A DNA stretch of 64,000 nt from Candidatus Bathyarchaeia archaeon (GCA_049516875.1 JBEKSS010000012.1:8758-72757), one strand, 5' to 3'; counted from the first letter of the stretch, positions 5,804-52,155 are shown. A program made the numbers and translations. The notes: generated by a model not told the origin, from the letters alone.

Positions 5804-8377
5804 TCAGTACTTGCATATTTTGTAGAAGAACACCTTACCAGCATCCACGAGAACAAGGTACGTCGCAACCATAAGCACCAGTAGCACCCAGTATTCAGGA
5901 GGAAGCGCTGCAAACCCCATAAAACTACCGAGAATGGTGAAGGGCAGTATGGTTCCGAAGGCCACGCATGAAAGCGTGAGCAAGGCAAGCCATTTTCCAG
6001 GACGACTCGTAAAGAAAGGTATTCGCCTGGTTCTAATCACGAACATGACTAATACTTCTGTCCAGAATGACTCTACGAACCATCCGGCTTGGAACACTGG
6101 CGCTGTAGCTTGTGTTTGGGCGTTGAATATGAAGAGCATTATGCCGTATGTTAGGAAGTCGTACAGTGAGCTGAACGGCCCGAAAAAGAGAGTGTATTTC
6201 CTGACGAAGCTCATGTCCCAACGCTTTGGCGACTTGACATATTCGTCATCAACATTGTCCGTTGGTAGTGTCATGTTCGAAACGTCGTAGAGCAAGTTCA
6301 TAAAGAGAATCTGTGATGCCAGCATAGGCTCGAACGGGAGAAAAACAGATGCAGCGGCGGCGCTGAACATGTTCCCGAAGTTTGAGCTGGTTCCCATCAG
6401 AATGTATTTCATGGTGTTGCCGAATATTTTTCGCCCCTCGTTTATGCCGTTAGCAAGTACGAGGAGATCCTTCTTGAGGAGCACGATGTCGGCTGCCTCT
6501 TTTGCCACGTCTACTGCCGTATCGACGGATATGCCCACGTCGGCCTCGTAAAGGGCTGGAGCATCGTTCACACCGTCTCCTAAGAAGCCTACGACGTTCT
6601 TGTCTGCCTTCAAGGCCTTGATTATGTCGAGTTTCTGTTCAGGTGTGACTCTCGCGAAAATCGTCGCTTCTTCCACGACTGACTTGATTTCGTTCCAGTT
6701 CATCTGCATTAAGTCTGAGCCTACCACTACTCTCTTGACCGGAATCTTGAGGTCCTCACAGACTGTTCTTGCAACGAGCTCATTGTCCCCTGTGAGTATT
6801 TTCACTGCGACTCCCATGTCATTCAACTTGTTAATGGCATCGTGGGCATCTTTCTTGGGAGGGTCTGTGAATATGAGAAAGCCCAAAAGAGTCAGATCTC
6901 TCTCGTCCTCAACCGAGTAAGAAGTCTTGCCTTGTATGCTTCTGGAGGCGACTGCGAGAAGGCGGTAACCAAGTTCTGAAAGACTGTAGAACTTATCGTT
7001 GATCGCCTTCTGAACATCAGCAATCAACTCGGTTTTTCCGCTAATGTCGGCATGCTTGCACTTGCTGAAAACAGATTCTGGGGCGCCTTTGCTGATGAGG
7101 GTGTATTCACCATTCTTCTTCACGACGACGGACATCATCCGCCGCTGATAATCGAAAGGAACTTCATCGACCTTGTTGTAAGGCTCAACATCCCTTTGTG
7201 CATCAATCTGTTTGGCATATTCCCATATTGCAACGTCCATCGGGTTTCCGACGATAGTCTCTCCTAGTACCGCAGCGTTGCAGAGCATCGAATAAGTCAG
7301 AAGCGTGTGGTCTTTTTCTTCGCCAAGCGGGTAAACATCCTTTAACGCTATCTTTCCCTCGGTAAGCGTGCCAGTCTTGTCAGTGCAGAGAACGTTCATG
7401 TTGCCGAAATCTTCAATCGAAACCAAACGTTTCACGACAACTTTCACTTTGGCCATTCTGCTCGCTCCCTGCGAAAGACTGATTGTCACGATTGCAGGCA
7501 TCAGCTCAGGCACCAACCCGACGGCGATTGCAAGAGAAAAAGTCAGAGACCAAACAAGGTCATGACCGATCGCCGCGTTTAACGAGAATATTGAGACTGC
7601 AAGAACGAGAGTAAAAGCAAGAAGCATGTTCCCGTAACTTTTCACTCCTTTCTGGAACTCGGTCTCAGGATGGGAGCGAGTCAAACTTCCTGATATCGAC
7701 CCCAACTTGCTATTCTTGCCAGTGGAGACTACAACGCCCTGAGCACTTCCATGAACCACTGCGGAGCCCATGAACAAGTAGTTCGTCAACTGTTGAGGTG
7801 TGGGATTCTGAATGTCAAGCTTGTCAGACGTTTTCTCAACTGGAAATGACTCCCCAGTAAATGTTGCTTCATTAGTCTCAAGATCCTTTGATTTCACGAT
7901 TCTCAAGTCTGCAGGCACAAGGTCACCGACGTAAACCGAGACCAGGTCTCCTGGAACCAGCAGTTTTGAATCTATCTGAGAGGATTTTCCGTCTCGGGTA
8001 ACCACAGCCTTAATCGACACCGCTCGCCGAAGACCCTGAACAGTCTTCTCTGCTTTGTACTCGTTGTAATACCCCAAGACAACGGCGATTCCTATCATTG
8101 CAGCTATTACTAGGGACTGGTCTGGCTCACCAAAGAAACCCGCAATAGCAGCGCATGCGACAAGAATGGCGAATATAGGGTTCTTGAACTGCCTGAAAAG
8201 CACCTGAGCCCGGCTGAAGGCGTGAACGGCCAACTCGTTGAAGCCGTGGACCTTGAGACGACGCTGAACTTCCTGTTCGGTTAGTCCCTGCTCGCCCGTC
8301 TCAAGGGATTTGTAAACATCCGTAGGAGGAATAGACCAATAATCCTTTTCGCTGTTTACGGTATGCTCCTTTGCCGT
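5804..8377 (-). CDS. mgtA: Mg2+-transporting P-type ATPase (P3B); probable ACG start
   Basis: TGES, GLVPELMP, DKTGT, GDGVND, SSNFGN; frame open upstream of TTG 8233 through the conserved GLTEQEVQRRL..HGFNEL motif to ACG 8377. Confidence 0.88.
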   Translation of the reverse strand, partial: TAKEHTVNSEKDYWSIPPTDVYKSLETGEQGLTEQEVQRRLKVHGFNELAVHAFSRAQVLFRQFKNPIFAILVACAAIAGFFGEPDQSLVIAAMIGIAVVLGYYNEYKAEKTVQGLRRAVSIKAVVTRDGKSSQIDSKLLVPGDLVSVYVGDLVPADLRIVKSKDLETNEATFTGESFPVEKTSDKLDIQNPTPQQLTNYLFMGSAVVHGSAQGVVVSTGKNSKLGSISGSLTRSHPETEFQKGVKSYGNMLLAFTLVLAVSIFSLNAAIGHDLVWSLTFSLAIAVGLVPELMPAIVTISLSQGASRMAKVKVVVKRLVSIEDFGNMNVLCTDKTGTLTEGKIALKDVYPLGEEKDHTLLTYSMLCNAAVLGETIVGNPMDVAIWEYAKQIDAQRDVEPYNKVDEVPFDYQRRMMSVVVKKNGEYTLISKGAPESVFSKCKHADISGKTELIADVQKAINDKFYSLSELGYRLLAVASRSIQGKTSYSVEDERDLTLLGFLIFTDPPKKDAHDAINKLNDMGVAVKILTGDNELVARTVCEDLKIPVKRVVVGSDLMQMNWNEIKSVVEEATIFARVTPEQKLDIIKALKADKNVVGFLGDGVNDAPALYEADVGISVDTAVDVAKEAADIVLLKKDLLVLANGINEGRKIFGNTMKYILMGTSSNFGNMFSAAAASVFLPFEPMLASQILFMNLLYDVSNMTLPTDNVDDEYVKSPKRWDMSFVRKYTLFFGPFSSLYDFLTYGIMLFIFNAQTQATAPVFQAGWFVESFWTEVLVMFVIRTRRIPFFTSRPGKWLALLTLSCVAFGTILPFTILGSFMGFAALPPEYWVLLVLMVATYLVLVDAGKVFFYKICKY

Positions 8378-8501
8378 ATTCTTGAATCCGCCTCAAGCAT
8401 GGTCCTCTTGACATTCACAAGGTTTTACTCCTAATACCATCGTGCGGTATTTAGGCGTTGCGTCACGTTTCCCATGTGCTAGGTTGAGCAGACATCCAGA
8501 C

Positions 8502-41859: not shown

Positions 41860-42017
41860 TTAACGCCATCCCCTTCTGTAAGAGATAAATGAACTATACA
41901 CGCATCTATAAAAATGCCCCATATGTGTCTTATATCGTTTATTTCTCGGATTTCTTATCGCTCATACATGTGATGTCTATTCTCCCAAAAAGATCGGATT
42001 GTCCAGATGATGATGCA

Positions 42018-42068
42018 GTGGGATCGCTGGGATTTGAACTCAGGACAAATGGAGATATCTCCCGAAAA
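42018..42068 (-). repeat. tRNA 3'-half remnant (att-like), copy 2
   Basis: Reverse complement CCTGAGTTCAAATCCCAGCGATCCCAC is a T-arm plus acceptor 3' strand, with no 5' half. Confidence 0.7.
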
Positions 42069-42457
42069 CTCGCTTTAGACTCGACATTTTAGATATCTCC
42101 GATATACCATGAGCAACCAGACGCTTAGAAACAATATGCCGAAAGTGTAGCACAAGAATACAACTGGAAACGATAGTGCAAAAAGTTAAGGTGTGGGAGA
42201 TTTCTCCAGCACAATCCCTTTTTTCTCTTCGTTTTTGCCCTTTTTGAGTTTTCTTCTGAGAATCAACGGGTCAAACATACTTTACAAAGACGCAGAGAAC
42301 AATCTTCCACTATGAATTTCAGCAACTTTGTAAAGAAGAACTGGTTAGGCTTGCAGATTAGAGTGCGTCAATAGGCAATGCACCAAAACCAATAGAAGAT
42401 TTCTCCATAAGCTTTATCCTGTTCGTTGAACTAAACTGCAGCAGGAGAAGGGAGAAT

Positions 42458-45058
42458 ACGAAGAGAGTACTAGCGGTAACAGCGATGCTAGTAGTTGTTT
42501 TTTCCATGTTTTCAGTCTTCACACAGGTGAAGGCTCAAGGTGCAAGTAGTCTTAACGCGAGTAGTACTCAGTCTTCACCAGAGACTTATCCAATTTCAAA
42601 TTTCACTGATTTCCAAAATGGAACGACGTTGACGGTCGTCGACTTTGGAAATGGGACATTGGATGAAACTTTCGAGACCCTAGTCAACAAAACCGCAACT
42701 CTTAACGTTCTGAATGACGCGTCGAATCAGTCTATCTCCTTGTTCACTTCTGAACAGGAACATACGAGTTACAAAAACTCAACCCAAACAGCAATGATGG
42801 AGCAGCAGCTGCTCATGGGTTTCACATATGAAATCGCCAAATACCGTATGCAATGGGATTGGAGCACAAATCTATGGTTACTGCAGGCTTATGTTGAGGT
42901 AGGAATCAATGTAGACATTGAATTTGGGCTGAGATTACCTGTAAACATAACTGTTGAATATCCCGAACAAATGACCATTGGTCGTAATTACACCTTCTAC
43001 GCGACCATTACACCCATTGACAAACCCAATTTCAATGAGGGTCTATGCGTGTTCCAAGCGTATGTATGGGCGGAAGCTGGAGTTTGGACACCTTTTACAG
43101 GTTGGGTGGTGTATCGTGCACAGTATGGGCCTGACTATGATCTTTCACAGAGTTTTCAAACGCCTCTTGGTCACGCTATAGCGTTTCCAATTAGCCCAAT
43201 ATATGCGAAAGTGTTTGAGGCAGATTGGGTTTGTCCTTTTGATTTTCTCGATATTTATTTGGGAGGTCAACCCGGATTCGGCTCAGACAGAGTTACTGCC
43301 GTGGCCAACGTAACAGGAGACGGCCAAGTAGTGGCTGGATCCAACATAACATGGACAGCACCTGGCCAGCGTCTACCATTCACAGTGCTTGCCAACAACT
43401 TGGATCCGACGACTAGTTACGCAAATATCAGCATTTCAAATTTCAGGTACTACTTCACCAACTTCTATATGCGGTTCTGGCTGAAATTCGATTTTAATTC
43501 ATGGATAGACTGGCTTACAGGCGACCCAGAGATACCTATCTACACTCTAGATCTTAGCTGGCTTGTCAGAAACCTCAATGGATATGTGGGGACGCATCTT
43601 GGATATCCAAACAGCGTCAACGTGGATCTATTCGTCAAGAACTATGGTGTTCAAATAATACAGATTAACCCCTCAGTCGCGAGTATAGAAGCCACTGAAT
43701 CAGCTTTATTCGAAGTTTCAATAATGAACACAGGCAGTGTTAACGATACATTTGAATTGTCTCTTCAAGGAGTTCCAAGTGATTGGCAATATAGCTTTTC
43801 TGAGAACGATCTTAATGTGACGCCAGGAAATATGATGAAATCGCACTTTTCGATAAAACCGCCTGGAAACGTCAGTCAGGGGCATTTCTCTTACAACGTT
43901 ACAGTCTCCAGCATGATGGCGCCTTTAGACGGCTTGGTCGCAACTGATCTGAGGACTTTTGCGATTGATGTCTCGCCACGGGCTCCTCCTCAAATCCAAG
44001 TTCTTATTCCCCAAAACACAACATATGCCACCAATACCATTGCGCTCAACTTCACGATCAACAAACCTAGCGTTTGGATCGGATACAACCTTGACAACAC
44101 TGGGAATATCACAGTTCTCGGAAACACAACCCTTATCGGCTTGCTCGATGGTTCTCATAACGTCGTCGTTTTCGCGAATGATAGCTTGGGGGATATGGGC
44201 TCATCCGATCTCGTCTATTTCTCAGTCCGAATTCCAATTCATGATGTCGCCGTGATTGACGTCGTATCCTCCGCTGCTCAAGTGTTTCAAGGTGCCGTGG
44301 TGAATGTCGACGTCACCGTCAAAAACAACGGAACAGAACCAGAAACATTCACTGTCAAAGCATACTATAACACTACAGCAATAGGCACGATTAATAACGT
44401 GTTTCTCAACCCAGCCGATACTCAGATCCTTACGTTTGCCTGGAATACTTCAACTGTTACTCCTGGAGTTTATACCCTGAAAGGGGAGGCTGGCCAAGTT
44501 CCTAATGAGGTCAACACAGCTAATAACGTGAAAGTCGATGGAACTGTGTCGATTCAAGCGCAAGCTGAAGAAAAGTTCTACGTCACAGTCAATGTGACTG
44601 ACAACAAGGGAAATCCAATATCAAATGCTGCCGTTTACACCAACCTAGAATCGAAACTGACGGACGGCGGATTTGTAGTGTTCACGTTCACAAAGGGCAA
44701 CTATACGATAAACGCCTATAAACAAGGTTATCAGTCTGGATCAGCCAACGTTTACGTGGACCAGAACATGACCCTCGTCCTTGTTCTATCACCGATACCG
44801 ATTCCTTCAGTAGTCGGGGGCTACTCCGTTTCTATGAAAGGACATAGCACAACAACACCAACTTCATTCTATCTCACTATGGCAATAATGCTGTCCGCTC
44901 TCTTCACAGCAATTAGACGCAAAACACGGAAAGAAAAAACAACTAGTATTTTAGGAGAACGCGTTCCTTCCATCGATAGACAATGTACTTCGCAAGGTTC
45001 AGTTGTCTGTTCTTCTCTGTTTTGTCCAAACTGTAAGGCAAGAAGGAAAGCGCAGTAA
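42458..45058 (+). CDS. Secreted surface protein with Ig-like/CARDB domains and C-terminal TM; probable ACG start
   Basis: Signal peptide (M)KRVLAVTAMLVVVFS..VKA; HDVAV..V.VKNNG.EPETF; VVGGYS before the TM. Confidence 0.8.
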   Translation, partial: TKRVLAVTAMLVVVFSMFSVFTQVKAQGASSLNASSTQSSPETYPISNFTDFQNGTTLTVVDFGNGTLDETFETLVNKTATLNVLNDASNQSISLFTSEQEHTSYKNSTQTAMMEQQLLMGFTYEIAKYRMQWDWSTNLWLLQAYVEVGINVDIEFGLRLPVNITVEYPEQMTIGRNYTFYATITPIDKPNFNEGLCVFQAYVWAEAGVWTPFTGWVVYRAQYGPDYDLSQSFQTPLGHAIAFPISPIYAKVFEADWVCPFDFLDIYLGGQPGFGSDRVTAVANVTGDGQVVAGSNITWTAPGQRLPFTVLANNLDPTTSYANISISNFRYYFTNFYMRFWLKFDFNSWIDWLTGDPEIPIYTLDLSWLVRNLNGYVGTHLGYPNSVNVDLFVKNYGVQIIQINPSVASIEATESALFEVSIMNTGSVNDTFELSLQGVPSDWQYSFSENDLNVTPGNMMKSHFSIKPPGNVSQGHFSYNVTVSSMMAPLDGLVATDLRTFAIDVSPRAPPQIQVLIPQNTTYATNTIALNFTINKPSVWIGYNLDNTGNITVLGNTTLIGLLDGSHNVVVFANDSLGDMGSSDLVYFSVRIPIHDVAVIDVVSSAAQVFQGAVVNVDVTVKNNGTEPETFTVKAYYNTTAIGTINNVFLNPADTQILTFAWNTSTVTPGVYTLKGEAGQVPNEVNTANNVKVDGTVSIQAQAEEKFYVTVNVTDNKGNPISNAAVYTNLESKLTDGGFVVFTFTKGNYTINAYKQGYQSGSANVYVDQNMTLVLVLSPIPIPSVVGGYSVSMKGHSTTTPTSFYLTMAIMLSALFTAIRRKTRKEKTTSILGERVPSIDRQCTSQGSVVCSSLFCPNCKARRKAQ

Positions 45059-45439
45059 TTAGAAGACTGTGTTTGACTACAATCTTTGAAAACCACCCAC
45101 CAAAACGTTAGGGCTAGGGTCGTTTAGATACCATGACGCTTCAAGACCCCTGAGCGTGCCATTTTTGCATGCCTTGGTTATACTGATGGCGTGAGATATG
45201 GTTGAACTTGATGTTTGGCATTGATGGTAGTTCGGGATTGCCTCTGATATCTCCCTAGTCTTGATGGTATTTCAGAAAGTGTTAACAGAACAAGATTGTT
45301 GTATCTGATAGTCTAACTATTAGAAGAATGACAAATGCACATACGGCACATACCGAGCCTTGACCTTGACTCTCAATTATCGGCTAGAATCGCAGTTTTC
45401 TCGGATTATTGAGAGCGCGCGCTCGAACCCGCGACGTGT

Positions 45440-45724
45440 GGAGCGGGAGACAGTAACCCTTAACTTTTCAGCCACTCCATTCTTCCTTGGCGATGACAAG
45501 AAATCGAGCCCTTCACAATCCCGCCGATACATCCACGCAGACGGACTCAACGGAAGAGGGCAAGCCTCAGGCTTGCCGGTTCTTGTGATGGCGAGTTTAC
45601 CCAAGCATGGGACACGGCGGGCGCGGGCCAAAAACCCTACGACGGAGAGAGCTTAACCTAGAAGGGCGCAACGCCCCACAGTGAAGTTAAGTGTTAGGTT
45701 ACGTAGGAAACAAGCAGGCCCGCG
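45440..45724 (+). ncRNA. Unidentified structured RNA candidate
   Basis: Several perfect 6-8 bp helices in a GC-rich intergenic segment; strand inferred from A-rich loops. Confidence 0.5.
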
Positions 45725-45790
45725 AAAAACAACTCTTAAGTTTGTCATATGCATACAGATAGGTAAAACCTGAAGCAGGCAGAGCAGAAT

Positions 45791-46879
45791 TTGGACATAG
45801 AAACAAAAATCGAGCTCGTGTGCAGACCGCCAACGGAAGAAGTCATAACCCCGGAAGACTTGCGGAAGCTTTTGGAAACCGAGCAGCATCCCATAGCCTA
45901 CAACGGCTGGGAACCATCGGGCCTGGTGCATCTTGGAACCGGGTTGGTTTGCGCGTACAAGATGAAGGATTTCATAGAAGCAGGAATACGGTATAAAGCC
46001 TATCTTTCTACGTGGCATGCTTGGCTCAACAATAAGATGGGCGGCGACCTGAAACTCATCAGAAAAGCCGCAGATCTCTTCAAACACTCATGGATAGCCC
46101 TGGGTGTTCCAGAAGACAAAGTCGAATTCATCTACTCAGACGAACTCTACGATGACTTGAAGTACTGGGAAAAAATGGTACTGATAGCAAAAAACCTTTC
46201 AATAGCCAGAGTAACCCGCACACTCGAGATCGCGGGAAGACAGGAATCTGAAGCCAAACACGTTTCAGACTACCTGTACACGCCCATGCAGGTAGCCGAC
46301 ATATTCCACATGGAAGTTAAAATCTGCCAACTCGGCATAGACCAACGCAAAGCCAACGTCGTAGCACGTGAACTGGGCGAAAAACTCGGATGCTGGAAAC
46401 CCGTGTGCGTCCATCACAGCCAGCTCCAAGGCCTCGCCAAACCGCCCGTCTGGCCCATTCCGAAAGAGAAAGAAAGAGAAATATTATCATCAATAAAGAT
46501 GTCAAAAAGCAAACCAGAAACCTGCATCTTCATCTATGACCACCCTGAGGAAATCAAACAGAAAATCTCACAGGCCTTCTGCCCCGAAAAAACCGTGGAG
46601 TACAACCCAATCCTAGAAATATGCAAATTCATAATCTTCAGAGAAAACAAAACCTTCACCATACAAAGACCAGACAAGTTCGGCGGCCCAATCACCTTCG
46701 ACAACCTCAAAGAACTTCAGAAAGCCTATGCAGAGGGAAAACTGCACCCGCAAGACCTCAAGAACGCTGTCGCAGAGGAACTCGCAAGAATCCTCGAACC
46801 CGTCAGAAAATACTTTGAAAACAACAAAGAAGCAAAAGAATGCCTCAACACCGTGAAAAACGTTAAGGTAACAAGGTAA
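45791..46879 (+). CDS. tyrS: Tyrosyl-tRNA synthetase
   Basis: YNGWEPSG, HLG, YTPMQVAD, DQRK, KMSKS, LHPQDLK. Confidence 0.96.
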   Translation: MDIETKIELVCRPPTEEVITPEDLRKLLETEQHPIAYNGWEPSGLVHLGTGLVCAYKMKDFIEAGIRYKAYLSTWHAWLNNKMGGDLKLIRKAADLFKHSWIALGVPEDKVEFIYSDELYDDLKYWEKMVLIAKNLSIARVTRTLEIAGRQESEAKHVSDYLYTPMQVADIFHMEVKICQLGIDQRKANVVARELGEKLGCWKPVCVHHSQLQGLAKPPVWPIPKEKEREILSSIKMSKSKPETCIFIYDHPEEIKQKISQAFCPEKTVEYNPILEICKFIIFRENKTFTIQRPDKFGGPITFDNLKELQKAYAEGKLHPQDLKNAVAEELARILEPVRKYFENNKEAKECLNTVKNVKVTR

Positions 46880-46884
46880 AAACC

Positions 46885-47247
46885 TTGTCGGCACATCTCA
46901 GGGAAAGACAAGAAAAAATCCAGCAAATTCTAGAATGCCTAGCAGAAGAATCAGCCAGAGGAACACCCATAATAGTTGAAGGAAAAAAAGACGTAGAGAC
47001 CCTGAGAACGCTGGGAGTGCAAGGGCAAATAGTGACTGCAAAAACCGGCGGAAAATCCCGTTTAGACCTCATCTCTGAAATAGAGACAACCGGAAACCGA
47101 GAAGTCATTCTGCTCCTGGATTTTGACAGACGAGGAAAAGAATGGACAGCAATCTTGAGAGAAAACCTGGAAAAAGCAAGGATAAAAACCAACATCACAT
47201 TCCGGAAAGAACTGCAAACGTTGAGTAGAAAACTCGGCGAAACATGA
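46885..47247 (+). CDS. Small TOPRIM domain protein
   Basis: IIVEGKKD, LLDFDRRG. Confidence 0.85.
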   Translation: MSAHLRERQEKIQQILECLAEESARGTPIIVEGKKDVETLRTLGVQGQIVTAKTGGKSRLDLISEIETTGNREVILLLDFDRRGKEWTAILRENLEKARIKTNITFRKELQTLSRKLGET

Positions 47248-47439
47248 AACCTGACCTGCTTCCAGTCGGTCCACACCACATCCATCACCCGATCCTCTCA
47301 GCACGATAGCACTCAAGGCTTCGCCGCAGAAACACTCGTCGGCAAATGAACCTTTGACAAAACCTAGAGAAGAATAAGAGGTTCTGTGTAGTCTTTGTCG
47401 AATTAGGGGTTCATGCGAAAAATCGTCGGATGACTAATC

Positions 47440-47904
47440 TTAGACTAATGTTAATTCTACTTTCTTTTTATCAACATAAACTTGGAACTTTGCAAGGACT
47501 TCCATTCCCAGTACACTTGGACAGTATCTAAGCATTTTTTCTCTCTCCACCTCTGTTGCGTCTGCAGGAATGCCGATTATTTGAAAACCGCCACCGTATG
47601 TAATCTTGTGTTCTTCTTTTGGAGACTTGAATGTCAAAATGACTGAGCGATTTATTATCTTGTTCCTGAACGTCCCACCGAATCCTATCGCTCCCTTTTT
47701 AGCTTCTGGCAGAAGCGCAAACTCAAGTCCAAGAAGGTTAGCTTCTTTTTCAGTTATTGCAGAATACGTGGAACCAGTATCAACAAGAAAATTAATGATT
47801 CTACCACAATGAAAAGCAGGTACCTCAAATAAAACAGGGATTATCGGACGATTGTTGTTAATAGTTAACCCAGTAAACTTGAAAAGTTTTCCCTCACAAT
47901 GGGC
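47440..47904 (-). CDS. Retropepsin-like (clan AA) aspartyl protease; start unresolved
   Basis: Open frame from 47904 with FLVDTGSTYS, GFGG, SVLGMEVL; no ATG/GTG/TTG before the DTG motif. Confidence 0.75.
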   Translation of the reverse strand, partial: AHCEGKLFKFTGLTINNNRPIIPVLFEVPAFHCGRIINFLVDTGSTYSAITEKEANLLGLEFALLPEAKKGAIGFGGTFRNKIINRSVILTFKSPKEEHKITYGGGFQIIGIPADATEVEREKMLRYCPSVLGMEVLAKFQVYVDKKKVELTLV

Positions 47905-48141
47905 CTAGAAGAACATAGCCAATTGCTTTGAATCTATGAACTCTACTATCGCAGCTTTTTTGTCTGCTTTCTTGAGCATATTGGTTATATTTTCGTATGT
48001 GCTACCCTTTGCAATTATTTTCTTGTTTTGTATTACAATCCATTGATTGTTATAATCTCTCCTTATATTTTTATAATTCTCCTTAAACCATTCCAAATTT
48101 TCTCTTGAAAGCTTGAACAATTCATCCTTTTCTGTTGGCAT
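47905..48141 (-). CDS. DUF5678-like small protein
   Basis: NLEWFKENY..Y.NQWIVI..KIIA.G. Confidence 0.7.
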   Translation of the reverse strand: MPTEKDELFKLSRENLEWFKENYKNIRRDYNNQWIVIQNKKIIAKGSTYENITNMLKKADKKAAIVEFIDSKQLAMFF

Positions 48142-48607
48142 GTTTTCTCTCTCCCATTAGCCAATATCAACATGAAACAGTTATTTAATTGTTGTTCTAA
48201 CAACAAGTCTGAAACATTATATGATTTATGAAGCTTTCATACACTTTACAGCTTCAAGCAACAATGTTATGGCTGAGATTACGCAGATAAACACTCCATC
48301 GTTTTACCCAATAGCTTGAGATACAATTCTCTCATAAACAAGGCTCAAACATTAATTGAGGAGATAATCACTCAAGATACGCCCTTGTTTCTGCAACACC
48401 GAAAGCTATCCGACGAATTTTCACAGAGAAAACCATCCGACGAAGACTACACAGAACCAAATAAGAAAACCTTAAAGAGCATGATCAATAATTCATAAAC
48501 GTAATATATAGTGAACGTTAAGATACAGTCTCGTGATTCGAAAACAAATAATCTCGAGTCACGCGATTAACGCTAACCCTTAACAAATCACTCGGAGGTG
48601 CATTAAT

Positions 48608-49768
48608 ACGGGTTCATCCCAAACGTTTACCATAAAGTATGTTATACACGCGCAATTCGAAATAGAAGGAGTAGTTGAAAAACCGGACGTGATAGGCGCA
48701 GTTTTCGGGCAGACAGAAGGCCTTTTTGGACCAGAGCTTGACCTGAGGGAACTGCAAAAATCGGGCAGAATCGGAAGAATAGAAATAGAGTTACACTCAA
48801 AAAACGATAAGACAACTGGCACGATAACCGTTCCAACAAGCCTAGACAGGGTTTCCACAGCGTTGATTGCCGCGAGCATCGAAAGCATAAACAGGGTAGG
48901 CCCATGCGCTTCAAAGGTAACCCTTGAAAAGGTCGAGGATGTCAGAGAAGCCCGAAGAAAGGTAATCATTGACAGAGCCAAAGACATCCTTCACAAGTGG
49001 ACAATCGAGTCGATGCCTTCAGTGGACGAAGTGTTCAAGGAAGTGTCTGAAACACTCAAAATGGGCAAAGTTGGAAAATACGGCACGGAAGAACTGCCTT
49101 CAGGCCCTGGACTTGAAATTGCAAAAGAAATAATCATTGTTGAAGGAAGAGCAGACATCATAAACCTCATGCGCTGCGGGCTGATGAACACTGTGGCTCT
49201 GGAAGGTGCAAAGGTTCCAGAGGCGATAAAGACGCTGTGCAAGGAAAAGGAAGCAACAGCCCTCCTCGACGGAGACAGAGGCGGAGACCTGATCTTCAAA
49301 GAACTCTTACAGGTCACCGACATAAAATACATTGCCAGAGCACCAAGAGGAAAAGAAGTTGAGGAACTAAACTGCAAGGAAATATTCGAAGCCCTCGAGG
49401 CAAAAATCTCCATCCAAGAACCAACCAAACTGGAAGCGCCGAAACCGCCGAAACGGGAAAAGCAGAAAATAGAGGTTCCAAAAGAAATCGTTGAAACAAT
49501 GAAATCATTAGAAGGCACGTTGGAAGCCGTGCTTCTGAACGAAAAATCGGAACAGATGGAACGGTTGCCGGTGAGCCAACTTGCCGAAAAACTCCAAAAG
49601 GCTGAAGGCGTGGACACCATAGTCTTCGACGGCATCATAACACAGCGAATCGTCGACGTGTCAAGCGAGAAGAATATAAAAAGAATAATCGCTTCACGCG
49701 TCTCGGACGCTGTTAGACCGTCATTAACGGTGCAGCTCATGACCTTTGCAGAAGTCACCGAGGGCTAA
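48608..49768 (+). CDS. dnaG: Archaeal DnaG (primase-like, exosome-associated); probable ACG start
   Basis: KYVIHA.FEIEGVVEKPDVIGAVFGQTEGL, VEGRAD, DGDRGG. Confidence 0.95.
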   Translation, partial: TGSSQTFTIKYVIHAQFEIEGVVEKPDVIGAVFGQTEGLFGPELDLRELQKSGRIGRIEIELHSKNDKTTGTITVPTSLDRVSTALIAASIESINRVGPCASKVTLEKVEDVREARRKVIIDRAKDILHKWTIESMPSVDEVFKEVSETLKMGKVGKYGTEELPSGPGLEIAKEIIIVEGRADIINLMRCGLMNTVALEGAKVPEAIKTLCKEKEATALLDGDRGGDLIFKELLQVTDIKYIARAPRGKEVEELNCKEIFEALEAKISIQEPTKLEAPKPPKREKQKIEVPKEIVETMKSLEGTLEAVLLNEKSEQMERLPVSQLAEKLQKAEGVDTIVFDGIITQRIVDVSSEKNIKRIIASRVSDAVRPSLTVQLMTFAEVTEG

Positions 49769-52155
49769 CCGCCAAAAAAATCTGTGAGTTTCCTGGTTTC
49801 TTTCCCACCAGTCCTAGACTCCAACAGTTGCTCCTCAGCCACCCCGAAGCTTTCAAGAATTCTGGCCGCCGCGGGCACAATTTGCTTAGACACGTAGTAC
49901 TCTATGTCAACGTCATCGTAAGAAGCCAGCACGTAGGGCTTAACCCTTTCATACAAGCGGCCTGTGCCACCGACCACCACGTAGCCTATTTTATCCCCCA
50001 CTGCCAGTTCCCAGCCCTTCGCCCTCAGCATCTTTGCAGCTTCAACATGCGAGGCTCTAACCTCATACTGCTCAGCAGGCTTACTCAGCGTTTTCCAGAT
50101 GACAAGATCATGGTATGGAACGCGCTTTTGCTGAAGCTCATAGATGAACTGATGCACAAAATCCACAGCCTTCCTAGGCGATTGCTCCTTCAAAACTATT
50201 TCCAGAACCTTCTCTTGAACCGTTTTGGCAATGGTCGCCCAGTCTCCCCGTACAACCTCCATGCCCACGATGTCAAGCCGACCATCAGGCAGAAGTCCAG
50301 CATACCGCTTCTTGGCCTCTGTGAAAAAGATTCTCACATAAACCTTGTCGAGCTTGATTTCCAATCCCAACTTTTTCCCGATGTCCTTCGCAAGTTTCTC
50401 AATTCTGCCAGGCTGATTCTCTATGAATATGCTGTCTGTGTCGCCGTAAACGACCTTCAACCCGTCCTTCTCAGCCATGTCAATCGCTGTGAGTATGGTG
50501 TGTCTTCCCCAAGCGGCCGCTGCCTCAGCCACGGGCTTAACGTACCACCTTGCACCCGTCCACCCAGCATAGCCGTAAGACGCGTTAGTGATAACCTTCA
50601 GGGCCTTTTGCCGCGCGTCCAGAACACGATACTCAACGCTTTTCGGCTGAAGCTCCTTCATTTTTAGACGGATTTCATCCCGTACGCTGATGAGATAGGA
50701 CAGGACTTCCTTGTAGAAGCCGGGAGGTTCTTTGCGAAACTTGTGCTTGACTTCTGGGGTCACGTAAACTCCGCCAGGCGGTTCAGGTTCTTTCGGCGTT
50801 ACGTAAGTGTCTGGAGAGAGGTTGTAGGTGATCATGATGTTAGGGTACATAGACTTGAAGTCGAGGACAGCGATGTTTTCGTGCAATCCCGGCTTTGGCT
50901 GAAGCACAAGGCCACCAGCGTACGGTCTGTAAGGCTGCTCGATTCTCCTAGGCACAAGCTCACCGAGTTTGTGAGTGTGCCTTATCAGAAACCATTCAAC
51001 CCGAAAGCCTGCTGCTGCCGTGCCGACATGATCCAACGGCAGACCTACAAGGTTAGAGAGTTGCATGGCAAAATCCAAGATTGCATCAGTTATTCCCATG
51101 ACACAACAAGTGTTGTCCATGGAAAACTGTTTCAGGATTCCGCGTTTCTCTTTGTTGTCCCAGTAGTCTGCGAAGTTTATGTCCTCGACGATTTCGCGGT
51201 TTTCAATCTTCATGACGCCAAGATAGTCGGCCAAATTAGCCAGAGTCTTCACTTTAACTTCTGGAAACTCTTCCGCATAATCGACCAAATCCAGATTAAC
51301 CCTGCCATTAAGCGAGATATGACCGTAAACACTCGTGTGCGGTTCCGTTTTCGCTCGGTCAATGCGCAGATGCATACCAAGCTTCTTGCACCTTTCAGTG
51401 AGGTACGGCCATTCCTGCCCATTCACACCATAGCCAACGATAATGTCAGGATTAACGCTTTCAACATAATTCATGAAGGCCTCCAGGACTGGCTTGTCGC
51501 TTCTGCTTTCGTCCGCCAAGAATTGCTTTTGTTCGCCACGGTTCGTCGCAGCCGAAATGATGACAACGGGGTTTCTGTCGGGTTTAGGAGAGCCTTCTCG
51601 GCTATAGTATATTGTAGAAAAGCCCAGCACGCGCAGCGGCGGACCCTCAGCTTTTTCAACCGGTTTTGGGAACGATTTTGCCAGGTAAACCTTGTCTATT
51701 CGGACGCCCAGCCTGTTTGCTTCCTCAACTGCCTCTATTTCATGCCATCCACACGGAACAACATCGTTGTCAATAAGGTAACGCATGGCAACACGAACGT
51801 CATCTTCGAAACACTCTCTCACGCCTTCGAACTCTCGAACCTGCTTTGCACACCTCGCTATTCCTTCAGCATTCTTGCAGTAAACCCTGACTGCTTTCAC
51901 AGGTTTTCCAAAAAACTTGCGCTCAACAACCTCAGGCTTCGCCGCCAAAACGCAATGGCTCGCGACAATTTCTTCAACAACCTTTCCAGGATCCGCATCA
52001 TCTGCAACTACCGCATAGAAGTACGGAACAAAACTCCTGTCGACGATAAGCACTCTCTCGCCCGCGCTGCTTATGCCCCAGACCCAAATTTCCGACAACT
52101 CATCCTTGGCCTCATAGTTAATATCGAGAAGCCAAAAAGTGACCTTCATGGCCAA
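49765..52155 (-). CDS. polB: Family B DNA polymerase (B3-like) with degenerate exonuclease motifs
   Basis: DFKSMYP, KVITNASYGY, YGDTDS, KKRY intact. Confidence 0.95.
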   Translation of the reverse strand: MAMKVTFWLLDINYEAKDELSEIWVWGISSAGERVLIVDRSFVPYFYAVVADDADPGKVVEEIVASHCVLAAKPEVVERKFFGKPVKAVRVYCKNAEGIARCAKQVREFEGVRECFEDDVRVAMRYLIDNDVVPCGWHEIEAVEEANRLGVRIDKVYLAKSFPKPVEKAEGPPLRVLGFSTIYYSREGSPKPDRNPVVIISAATNRGEQKQFLADESRSDKPVLEAFMNYVESVNPDIIVGYGVNGQEWPYLTERCKKLGMHLRIDRAKTEPHTSVYGHISLNGRVNLDLVDYAEEFPEVKVKTLANLADYLGVMKIENREIVEDINFADYWDNKEKRGILKQFSMDNTCCVMGITDAILDFAMQLSNLVGLPLDHVGTAAAGFRVEWFLIRHTHKLGELVPRRIEQPYRPYAGGLVLQPKPGLHENIAVLDFKSMYPNIMITYNLSPDTYVTPKEPEPPGGVYVTPEVKHKFRKEPPGFYKEVLSYLISVRDEIRLKMKELQPKSVEYRVLDARQKALKVITNASYGYAGWTGARWYVKPVAEAAAAWGRHTILTAIDMAEKDGLKVVYGDTDSIFIENQPGRIEKLAKDIGKKLGLEIKLDKVYVRIFFTEAKKRYAGLLPDGRLDIVGMEVVRGDWATIAKTVQEKVLEIVLKEQSPRKAVDFVHQFIYELQQKRVPYHDLVIWKTLSKPAEQYEVRASHVEAAKMLRAKGWELAVGDKIGYVVVGGTGRLYERVKPYVLASYDDVDIEYYVSKQIVPAAARILESFGVAEEQLLESRTGGKETRKLTDFFGG

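Follow-up and report, generated by a model that had tools for sequence, protein, structure and literature searches.

Initiation at codons that differ from AUG by one base is known from eukaryotes and viruses, where ACG and CUG are among the favoured near-cognate codons and are read by the initiator methionyl-tRNA (Met-tRNAi), as in the capsid and Rep genes of adeno-associated virus and the C' protein of paramyxoviruses. The eukaryotic ACG starts work by Met-tRNAi pairing with a mismatch. In bacteria, infC starts at AUU for autoregulation, and low-level initiation has been measured from many codons in Escherichia coli; to our knowledge, NCBI translation table 11 does not list ACG as a start. 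In plant chloroplasts and mitochondria, editing of a genomic ACG to an AUG start requires PPR-DYW-type factors. Here we describe a 64,000-nucleotide stretch (the window; JBEKSS010000012.1:8758-72757, contig C12 of the genome termed G000, GCA_049516875.1) from the 2.43-Mb, 20-contig genome of an uncultured peat archaeon, Candidatus Bathyarchaeia archaeon, in which dnaG appears to start at the ACG at position 48608. Archaeal DnaG is a partner of the archaeal exosome. The best reading of the sequence comparisons, to which we give a probability of roughly three in four, is that the normal initiator tRNA initiates at ACG as a near-cognate codon, in no more than a few percent of the genes.

The locus resembles the eukaryotic and viral near-cognate starts in its one-base mismatch to AUG, in the preference for ACG and CUG, in the confinement to particular genes and in the eukaryotic-type set of initiation factors, aIF1 being present. 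It differs from the eukaryotic starts in that the codon is placed by a Shine-Dalgarno (SD) sequence instead of by scanning and Kozak context, and in that ACG is the only start of housekeeping genes, whereas there it serves as the alternative start of an isoform. With the AUU of infC it shares a weak codon driven by an SD site, gene-specific conservation and a role thought to be the limitation or regulation of expression; unlike infC, no feedback factor is evident, and the absence of ACG from table 11 is a further difference from the rare bacterial starts. With start editing in plant organelles it shares a genomic ACG at the start position of conserved genes. In the literature outside subscription papers, no report of ACG initiation in archaea or bacteria was found, the matches listed comprising only eukaryotic, viral and organellar reports. 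The available part of a review of archaeal recoding (PMC8211752) mentions only discrimination against non-canonical starts. Near-cognate initiation itself being known, the new part is classed as its SD-driven form, in archaea, as the sole start of housekeeping genes.

The first-pass annotation had placed the conserved N-terminus of DnaG upstream of the first canonical start codon, GTG 48689, and had described a frame closed by TAA 48581 with a GGAGGTG site 7 nucleotides (nt) before ACG 48608. Both descriptions stand. The letters read as claimed, and no ATG, GTG or TTG occurs in frame between TAA 48581 and GTG 48689. The peptide read from ACG 48608 is TGSSQTFTIKYVIHAQFEIEGVVEKPDV / TGSSQTFTIKYVIHAQFEIEGVVEKPDVIGAVFGQTEG. 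The NCBIfam DnaG equivalog NF003108 matches the proposed protein over its full length with 465.8 bits (cut-off 300), the best stretch pairing residues 10-277 with profile positions 1-268, and the start codon is the only difference from that family. The profile thus begins at residue 10, and GTG 48689 is residue 28.

The relatives of G000 are Bathyarchaeia metagenome-assembled genomes (MAGs), many of them from peat. dnaG is present in 37 of the 41 related genomes searched, and a further 80 loci were taken from a scan that used one genome per species, giving 110 loci with 98 distinct sequences. An x-G-S-S-Q N-terminus is found in 89 of the 98, and the start column of these 89 holds ACG in 80 loci, ATG in 9 and nothing else. 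One additional ACG locus (L094, with the N-terminus TGSAQ) lies outside the 89, having been missed by the N-terminus pattern, and in the eight most divergent loci (50-58% identity) the N-terminus differs, an ATG or TTG standing one or two codons further upstream. Of the 80 ACG loci, 56 lack any canonical codon as far back as the upstream in-frame stop, and another 6 have one, but only far upstream. Three loci with a typical Bathyarchaeia dnaG and an ACG start (L088, L126 and L139) are on contigs in MAGs labelled as bacteria (Acidiferrales, Limnocylindrales and Acidoferrum), which is probably binning contamination.

None of the 89 loci has ACA, ACC or ACT in the start column. The second and third bases of the column are therefore constrained unlike those of a sense threonine codon; five positions downstream, the threonine codon is ACG in 36 loci, ACA in 29, ACC in 10 and ACT in 1, and seven positions downstream it is ACC in 35, ACG in 27, ACT in 15 and ACA in 11. 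On a quick maximum-likelihood tree, 6 changes are required to explain the ATG state, of which supported branches force no fewer than 3, and ATG forms occur within ACG clades (G003, which belongs to the same genus as G000; L008/L105; L097). Since no synonymous replacement is found and ATG and ACG swap repeatedly, we argue that the ACG in this column would act as a start and not as a plain threonine codon.

A start of dnaG elsewhere is unlikely. It could lie at GTG 48689, yielding a truncated DnaG, or at a non-canonical codon such as ATT 48602 or ATA 48632. GTG 48689 is indeed the first canonical codon, and NCBI table 11 admits ATT and ATA as rare starts in prokaryotes, which counts for this alternative. 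However, GTG 48689 encodes a conserved internal valine, and a start there would remove the first 18 positions of the NF003108 profile. The peptide GSSQTFTIKY, which follows the start codon and lies upstream of GTG 48689, is conserved with synonymous variation in the relatives and is therefore judged to be translated. ATT 48602 begins 1 nt behind the SD sequence and is unconserved (ACT, CCC, ACG and ATA in relatives), and ATA 48632 swaps with GTA, ATT and ATC in the manner of an isoleucine or valine codon.

A second gene in the window, encoding an mgtA-like P-type ATPase of the magnesium type on the opposite strand, likewise has ACG where the start is expected. Its first canonical codon, TTG 8233, is residue 49 and thus falls within the Cation_ATPase_N domain. 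The start was compared among four orthologs of at least 75% identity (G000, G004, G002 and G021), partial matches in G024 (no locus given) and G020 (contig end) being left out, and all four read TGA GGC GGA TTC AAG AxY ACG. The 15 nt before the ACG are invariant except for the -1 codon (AAT, AAC or ACT), and synonymous and conservative changes start directly after the ACG. The block TGAGGCGGATTCAAGA in front of this ACG is identical in the four orthologs, which represent two genera; this suggests that a leader or a regulatory element is conserved there.

The gene for the RNA polymerase subunit RpoK lies outside the window. It was followed through 30 relatives, which belong to 12 families, and 27 of them have ACG 7-10 codons before a GPPK motif; the corresponding place is taken by ATG in one relative and by GTG in another. 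This ACG is usually three bases past the stop of the preceding gene, which ends in GEY, and in 23 of the 27 relatives no canonical codon occurs back to the stop. All stop-to-stop frames of G000 were compared with the 1.44-Mb contig C1 of G003, which gave 899 coding-frame pairs, and with 1.06 Mb of G012, a member of another genus, which gave 688. About ten genes beyond rpoK have ACG or CTG at the inferred start, some of them against ATG or GTG in a relative. Starts of further genes in these genomes are listed in Table 1 together with the features of the window. A search of 40 relatives also found the proteins of hflX and of the C2:153658 gene; the start codons of these two genes were compared with those of G003 or G012.

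Table 1 Features of the window and of other G000 genes with proposed non-canonical starts. Plain positions are those of the window; contig positions are those of G000.
Feature	Position	Strand	Basis, or codon at the start column
In-frame stop TAA closing the dnaG frame upstream	48581..48583	+	In frame with ACG 48608-48610 and GTG 48689-48691
Shine-Dalgarno-like GGAGGTG	48594..48600	+	7-nt spacer (48601-48607) to ACG; end of GGAGG core 9 nt before ACG
Mini-frame GTG-CAT-TAA, out of frame, beginning in the SD sequence and running past it	48598..48606	+	Two codons; ends 1 nt before ACG
ACG, proposed dnaG initiation codon	48608..48610	+	ACG/ATG column in 89 related loci; same letters in independent assemblies
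Proposed dnaG coding sequence, 386 residues plus stop; archaeal DnaG with Toprim domain	48608..49768	+	NF003108, Toprim
First canonical in-frame codon GTG, conserved valine of EKPDVIGAVFGQTEG, not a start	48689..48691	+	Profile alignment, ortholog comparison
ACG, proposed mgtA-like start	8375..8377	-	ACG in 4/4 orthologs; AAT before ACG
Proposed mgtA-like coding sequence, Mg-type P-type ATPase, 857 residues plus stop	5804..8377	-	TIGR01524, 795 bits; Cation_ATPase_N at residues 13-78
In-frame TGA closing the mgtA frame upstream	8393..8395	-	Ortholog alignment
ACG, possible surface-protein start	42458..42460	+	AAT ACG AAG at 42455-42463; AGGAG at 42443-42447
Surface-protein coding sequence if started at ACG, 866 residues plus stop	42458..45058	+	Otherwise from ATG 42485
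rpoK	contig C1		G000 ACG; G003 ACG
hflX			G000 ACG behind GGAGGA; G003 ACG
Gene with ACG 44 codons before its first canonical codon	C2:153658		G000 ACG behind GAGGTG; G012 ACG behind AGGTG
Gene	C1:194593		G000 ACG; G003 ACG
ABC ATPase			G000 ACG; G003 ATG
Membrane protein	C7:161320		G000 ACG; G003 ATC; G012 ATG
cooC-like ATPase	C7:41324	+	G000 CTG; G003 CTG; G012 GTG
rpo7	C3:149665	+	G000 CTG; G003 CTG
Gene	C1:102708 (CTG at C1:102712)	+	G000 CTG; G003 GTG
Gene	C7:139903 (reverse-strand offset)		G000 CTG; G003 ATG

A surface protein encoded in the window was the third case of the first-pass annotation, which had seen a common AAT-ACG-R context at the heads of all three genes. The three ACG sites are as described, but the context is not shared by the relatives: the -1 codon of dnaG is AAC, AGC, ATT, TTT, CTT or CTC there, and that of mgtA varies as given above. 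The AAT before ACG in the three genes of the window is taken as coincidence. For the surface protein, whose first canonical codon is ATG 42485, a start at ACG 42458 would give a basic M-K-R n-region of a signal peptide before the hydrophobic core, and the AGGAG upstream stands at the usual spacing. Searches of the 41 genomes for orthologs returned repeat-domain matches only, none of them to the N-terminus, and domain and profile searches returned no family match. As an ortholog is lacking, ACG is rated here as no more than a plausible start.

The spacing of the dnaG ribosome-binding site is the most frequent one in this genome. In a reference set of 141 G000 genes whose ATG start is fixed by ortholog alignment, 43 have an SD match of at least 5 nt, and the start codon most often follows the end of the GGAGG core at a distance of 9 (12 of the 43). 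The distance is likewise 9 in G000 dnaG and in most of the related dnaG loci.

The swapping of ACG and ATG at these columns also bears on C-to-U editing of the mRNA, which had been offered at the outset as the other possible cause and which would convert ACG to AUG and CUG to UUG before translation, as in plant organelles. The genomic ACG stands exactly in the ATG column of the relatives, and ACG and CTG, the commonest non-canonical candidates, are each one C-to-U change from a canonical start. Frequent exchange of ACG and ATG, however, needs no editing machinery, and codons that C-to-U conversion cannot make canonical also occur at start columns (ATC at one column in G003; ATA twice and ATC once in G000). 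Unlike in plant organelles, a PPR-DYW-type factor was not detected, the profile search for a DYW-type deaminase being a weak one that was also silent in control genomes, and the only zinc deaminase frames are two small ones (PF00383; 164 and 145 residues) with no extra domain. The known archaeal case of C-to-U editing concerns C8 of tRNA in Methanopyrus, and we know of no mRNA C-to-U editing in archaea. If start codons were edited here, archaea would have their first system of mRNA editing; we regard this reading as quite improbable.

Independent DNA argues against a wrong letter. Metagenome runs that contain the stretch come from peat, wetland and sediment, and none of those listed for window positions 42000-50000 is an RNA run. 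DNA contigs of other studies, not of the one from which the genome probably stems, were compared over a part of the window that takes in 42458 and 48608. Across 48608, two of them (X3 record 6, 47213-48683; X4 record 12, 47213-48642) show no differing letter, and across 42458 three (X3 record 1, X4 record 9 and X5 record 16) are identical to the window. A contig from a related organism (X8) joins at 48608, and its upstream letters, ...CAGAGGTGTACGCTC, have the layout of locus L086, an SD sequence plus 7 nt. Because independent peat and wetland assemblies have the same ACG, the dnaG codon is not a sequencing error, as the first-pass annotation had maintained; the identity at 42458 extends this to the surface-protein ACG as DNA, while its use as a start, for want of an ortholog, has the lower standing given above. 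A systematic, motif-bound T-to-C error was also considered and was rejected because the AATATG k-mer is not depleted (609/590 occurrences, against 474/442 of AATACG).

An artefact, in which T was read as C during sequencing or assembly, or decay, in which dnaG is a pseudogene with no start, is accordingly very improbable. The genome is a MAG, and at least one other gene, top6B on contig C1, apparently differs from its counterparts in G003 and G012 by a 1-nt indel, which speaks for errors of this kind; against them stand the identical contigs from other studies, the occurrence of ACG in 80 distinct related loci from many projects, the intact full-length dnaG frame with its strong family match, and the presence of the gene in most of the genomes searched. 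The top6B frame, which encodes subunit B of topoisomerase VI (G000:C1, approximately 150.7-152.3 kb, minus strand), opens just 4 codons before the conserved FFYRNRD, upstream of which the frame runs on in G003 and G012, unlike in G000. This has the look of a single-nucleotide insertion or deletion near the 5' end in G000, due to misassembly or to a genuine frameshift. Immediately upstream of dnaG, contigs of two independent runs (X3 and X5) join 47371 to 48459 and thus skip 1087 bases (47372-48458). The skipped segment contains small open reading frames, such as 47905-48141 on the minus strand, and may be an insertion/deletion polymorphism between strains.

Just as improbable is initiation at an out-of-frame codon followed by a programmed frameshift. 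The requisite codons exist, namely GTG 48598 in the SD sequence of dnaG and an ATG upstream of mgtA, which opens a 14-codon frame overlapping the ACG (window 8354-8398, minus strand). GTG 48598 is, however, directly followed by CAT TAA and is absent in some relatives (GGAGGTAT, AGGAGTTG); the dnaG spacer is 6 nt in some relatives and 7 nt in others, so that the frame relation to the upstream GTG changes. The ATG upstream of mgtA is in different frames in G000 and G021, which likewise argues against a frameshift, and a conserved slippery site was not seen at these loci. The dnaG mini-frame also occurs in G004 and G002 (GTG CAC TAA or TAG) and is missing in other genera; as its conservation ends with the genus, no function is ascribed to it.

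The tRNA complement points to the ordinary initiator. A single initiator-type tRNA was found in G000 (C1:469775-469871, plus strand), with an A1:U72 pair, the GGG/CCC anticodon stem and the anticodon CAU; a 21-nt intron interrupts its anticodon loop at the canonical position. This intron-bearing gene is misread by ARAGORN as tRNA-???(ataa) or tRNA-Ser(cga), and with introns allowed ARAGORN reports no more than 38 tRNAs in G000, some of them doubtful. A dedicated initiator-type tRNA with the anticodon CGU, which would read ACG directly, is very improbable: although ARAGORN with introns allowed gives three tRNA-Thr(CGU), the single clean one (C17:6095) is an ordinary elongator with a G1:C72 stem, the other two come from questionable interpretations of genes with introns, and a narrow pattern search of G000 found no initiator-like tRNA with CGU, the only A1:U72 tRNA that it found having CAU. 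Loss of aIF1 was considered as a cause of ACG use and was rejected because aIF1 is present in 39 of 41 genomes. According to the available part of PMC4705826, aIF1 discriminates against AUU.

For near-cognate initiation at ACG, the following course, the simplest one, is proposed. The strong GGAGGTG site would place the 30S subunit with ACG 48608 in the P site, where the ordinary initiator Met-tRNA (CAU) would pair with A-C-G, leaving a C·A mismatch at the middle base, and DnaG would begin Met-Gly-Ser-Ser-Gln. ACG would then be a weak start kept by selection, most likely holding down the output of dnaG, rpoK, the mgtA-like ATPase, hflX and a few others. We infer all three elements, the reading of ACG by Met-tRNAi, the product with methionine first and the throttling of expression. 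Our best explanation would make ACG and CUG regular starts that selection maintains throughout this order of Bathyarchaeia.

How often such starts are used was estimated by a strict ortholog test, restricted to G000 genes whose partner start is well defined and blind to an ACG shared by both genomes. With G012 as partner, 244 of 333 genes have a canonical codon at the same column, 73 have one nearby and 16 have a non-canonical codon (ACG 1, CTG 2, ATA 2, ATC 1, AGG 2 and others 8); with G003, the corresponding numbers among 364 genes are 277, 61 and 26, and part of the non-canonical remainder is alignment noise. The first lists of open reading frame pairs were swamped by wrong-frame open reading frames and conserved 5' leaders, and for this reason no firm count of genes started at ACG is given.

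Several observations weigh against near-cognate initiation at ACG, or at least against its extent. The strict ortholog test found the single ACG among 333 genes, within its blindness to shared ACG. A crude genome-wide count of ACG behind an SD sequence gives 28/580 against a background of 4.0%, a small enrichment. Upstream of the first canonical codon in G000, an SD sequence precedes 5 of 83 ACG codons, compared with 130 of 6080 for all codons (2.1%); the same test in G003 gives 5/85 for ACG and 8/92 for CTG against 184/6393 for all codons. At dnaG itself, 18 of the 80 ACG loci have an in-frame canonical codon within 12 codons upstream, where the start could lie; this is mostly the GTG of the SD sequence, in loci whose spacer is 6 nt and not 7, and the start in these 18 is ambiguous. 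The related loci are kin and not independent, so that the counts overstate the number of events. The 16S gene, and with it the anti-SD sequence, was not found in G000 with Rfam RF01959 (the MAG is 97% complete by marker genes), and a 16S motif has no match in G000 or in the examined parts of G003 and G012. Finally, ACG is not an established start in archaea, whose start codons are given as AUG, GUG and UUG in the part of PMC4705826 that is available.

In sum, the first-pass proposal of near-cognate initiation fits the missing canonical codon, the SD spacing, the ATG column, the absence of any ACN swap and the cases of mgtA, rpoK and the other genes; its word "routine" overstates the matter in view of the one ACG in 333 genes. 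Genome-wide screens for ACG behind an SD sequence returned a weak signal, and the strict ortholog test 16 non-canonical starts in the comparison with G012. ACG starts are rare and confined to certain genes that make up no more than a few percent of the total.

Gene finders restricted to ATG, GTG and TTG trim 27 residues from DnaG and 48 from the magnesium ATPase, and the 85-residue RpoK, a universal marker, is shortened or missed by such programs; the misannotation extends through an entire order of archaea that are abundant in peat and sediment. Archaeal initiation brings eukaryote-type factors to SD-led mRNAs, and a conserved use of ACG and CUG bears on the evolution of start stringency between archaea and eukaryotes. 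Because ACG persists over long evolutionary times in particular genes, its long retention in dnaG, rpoK, hflX and the magnesium transporter suggests a built-in translational throttle.

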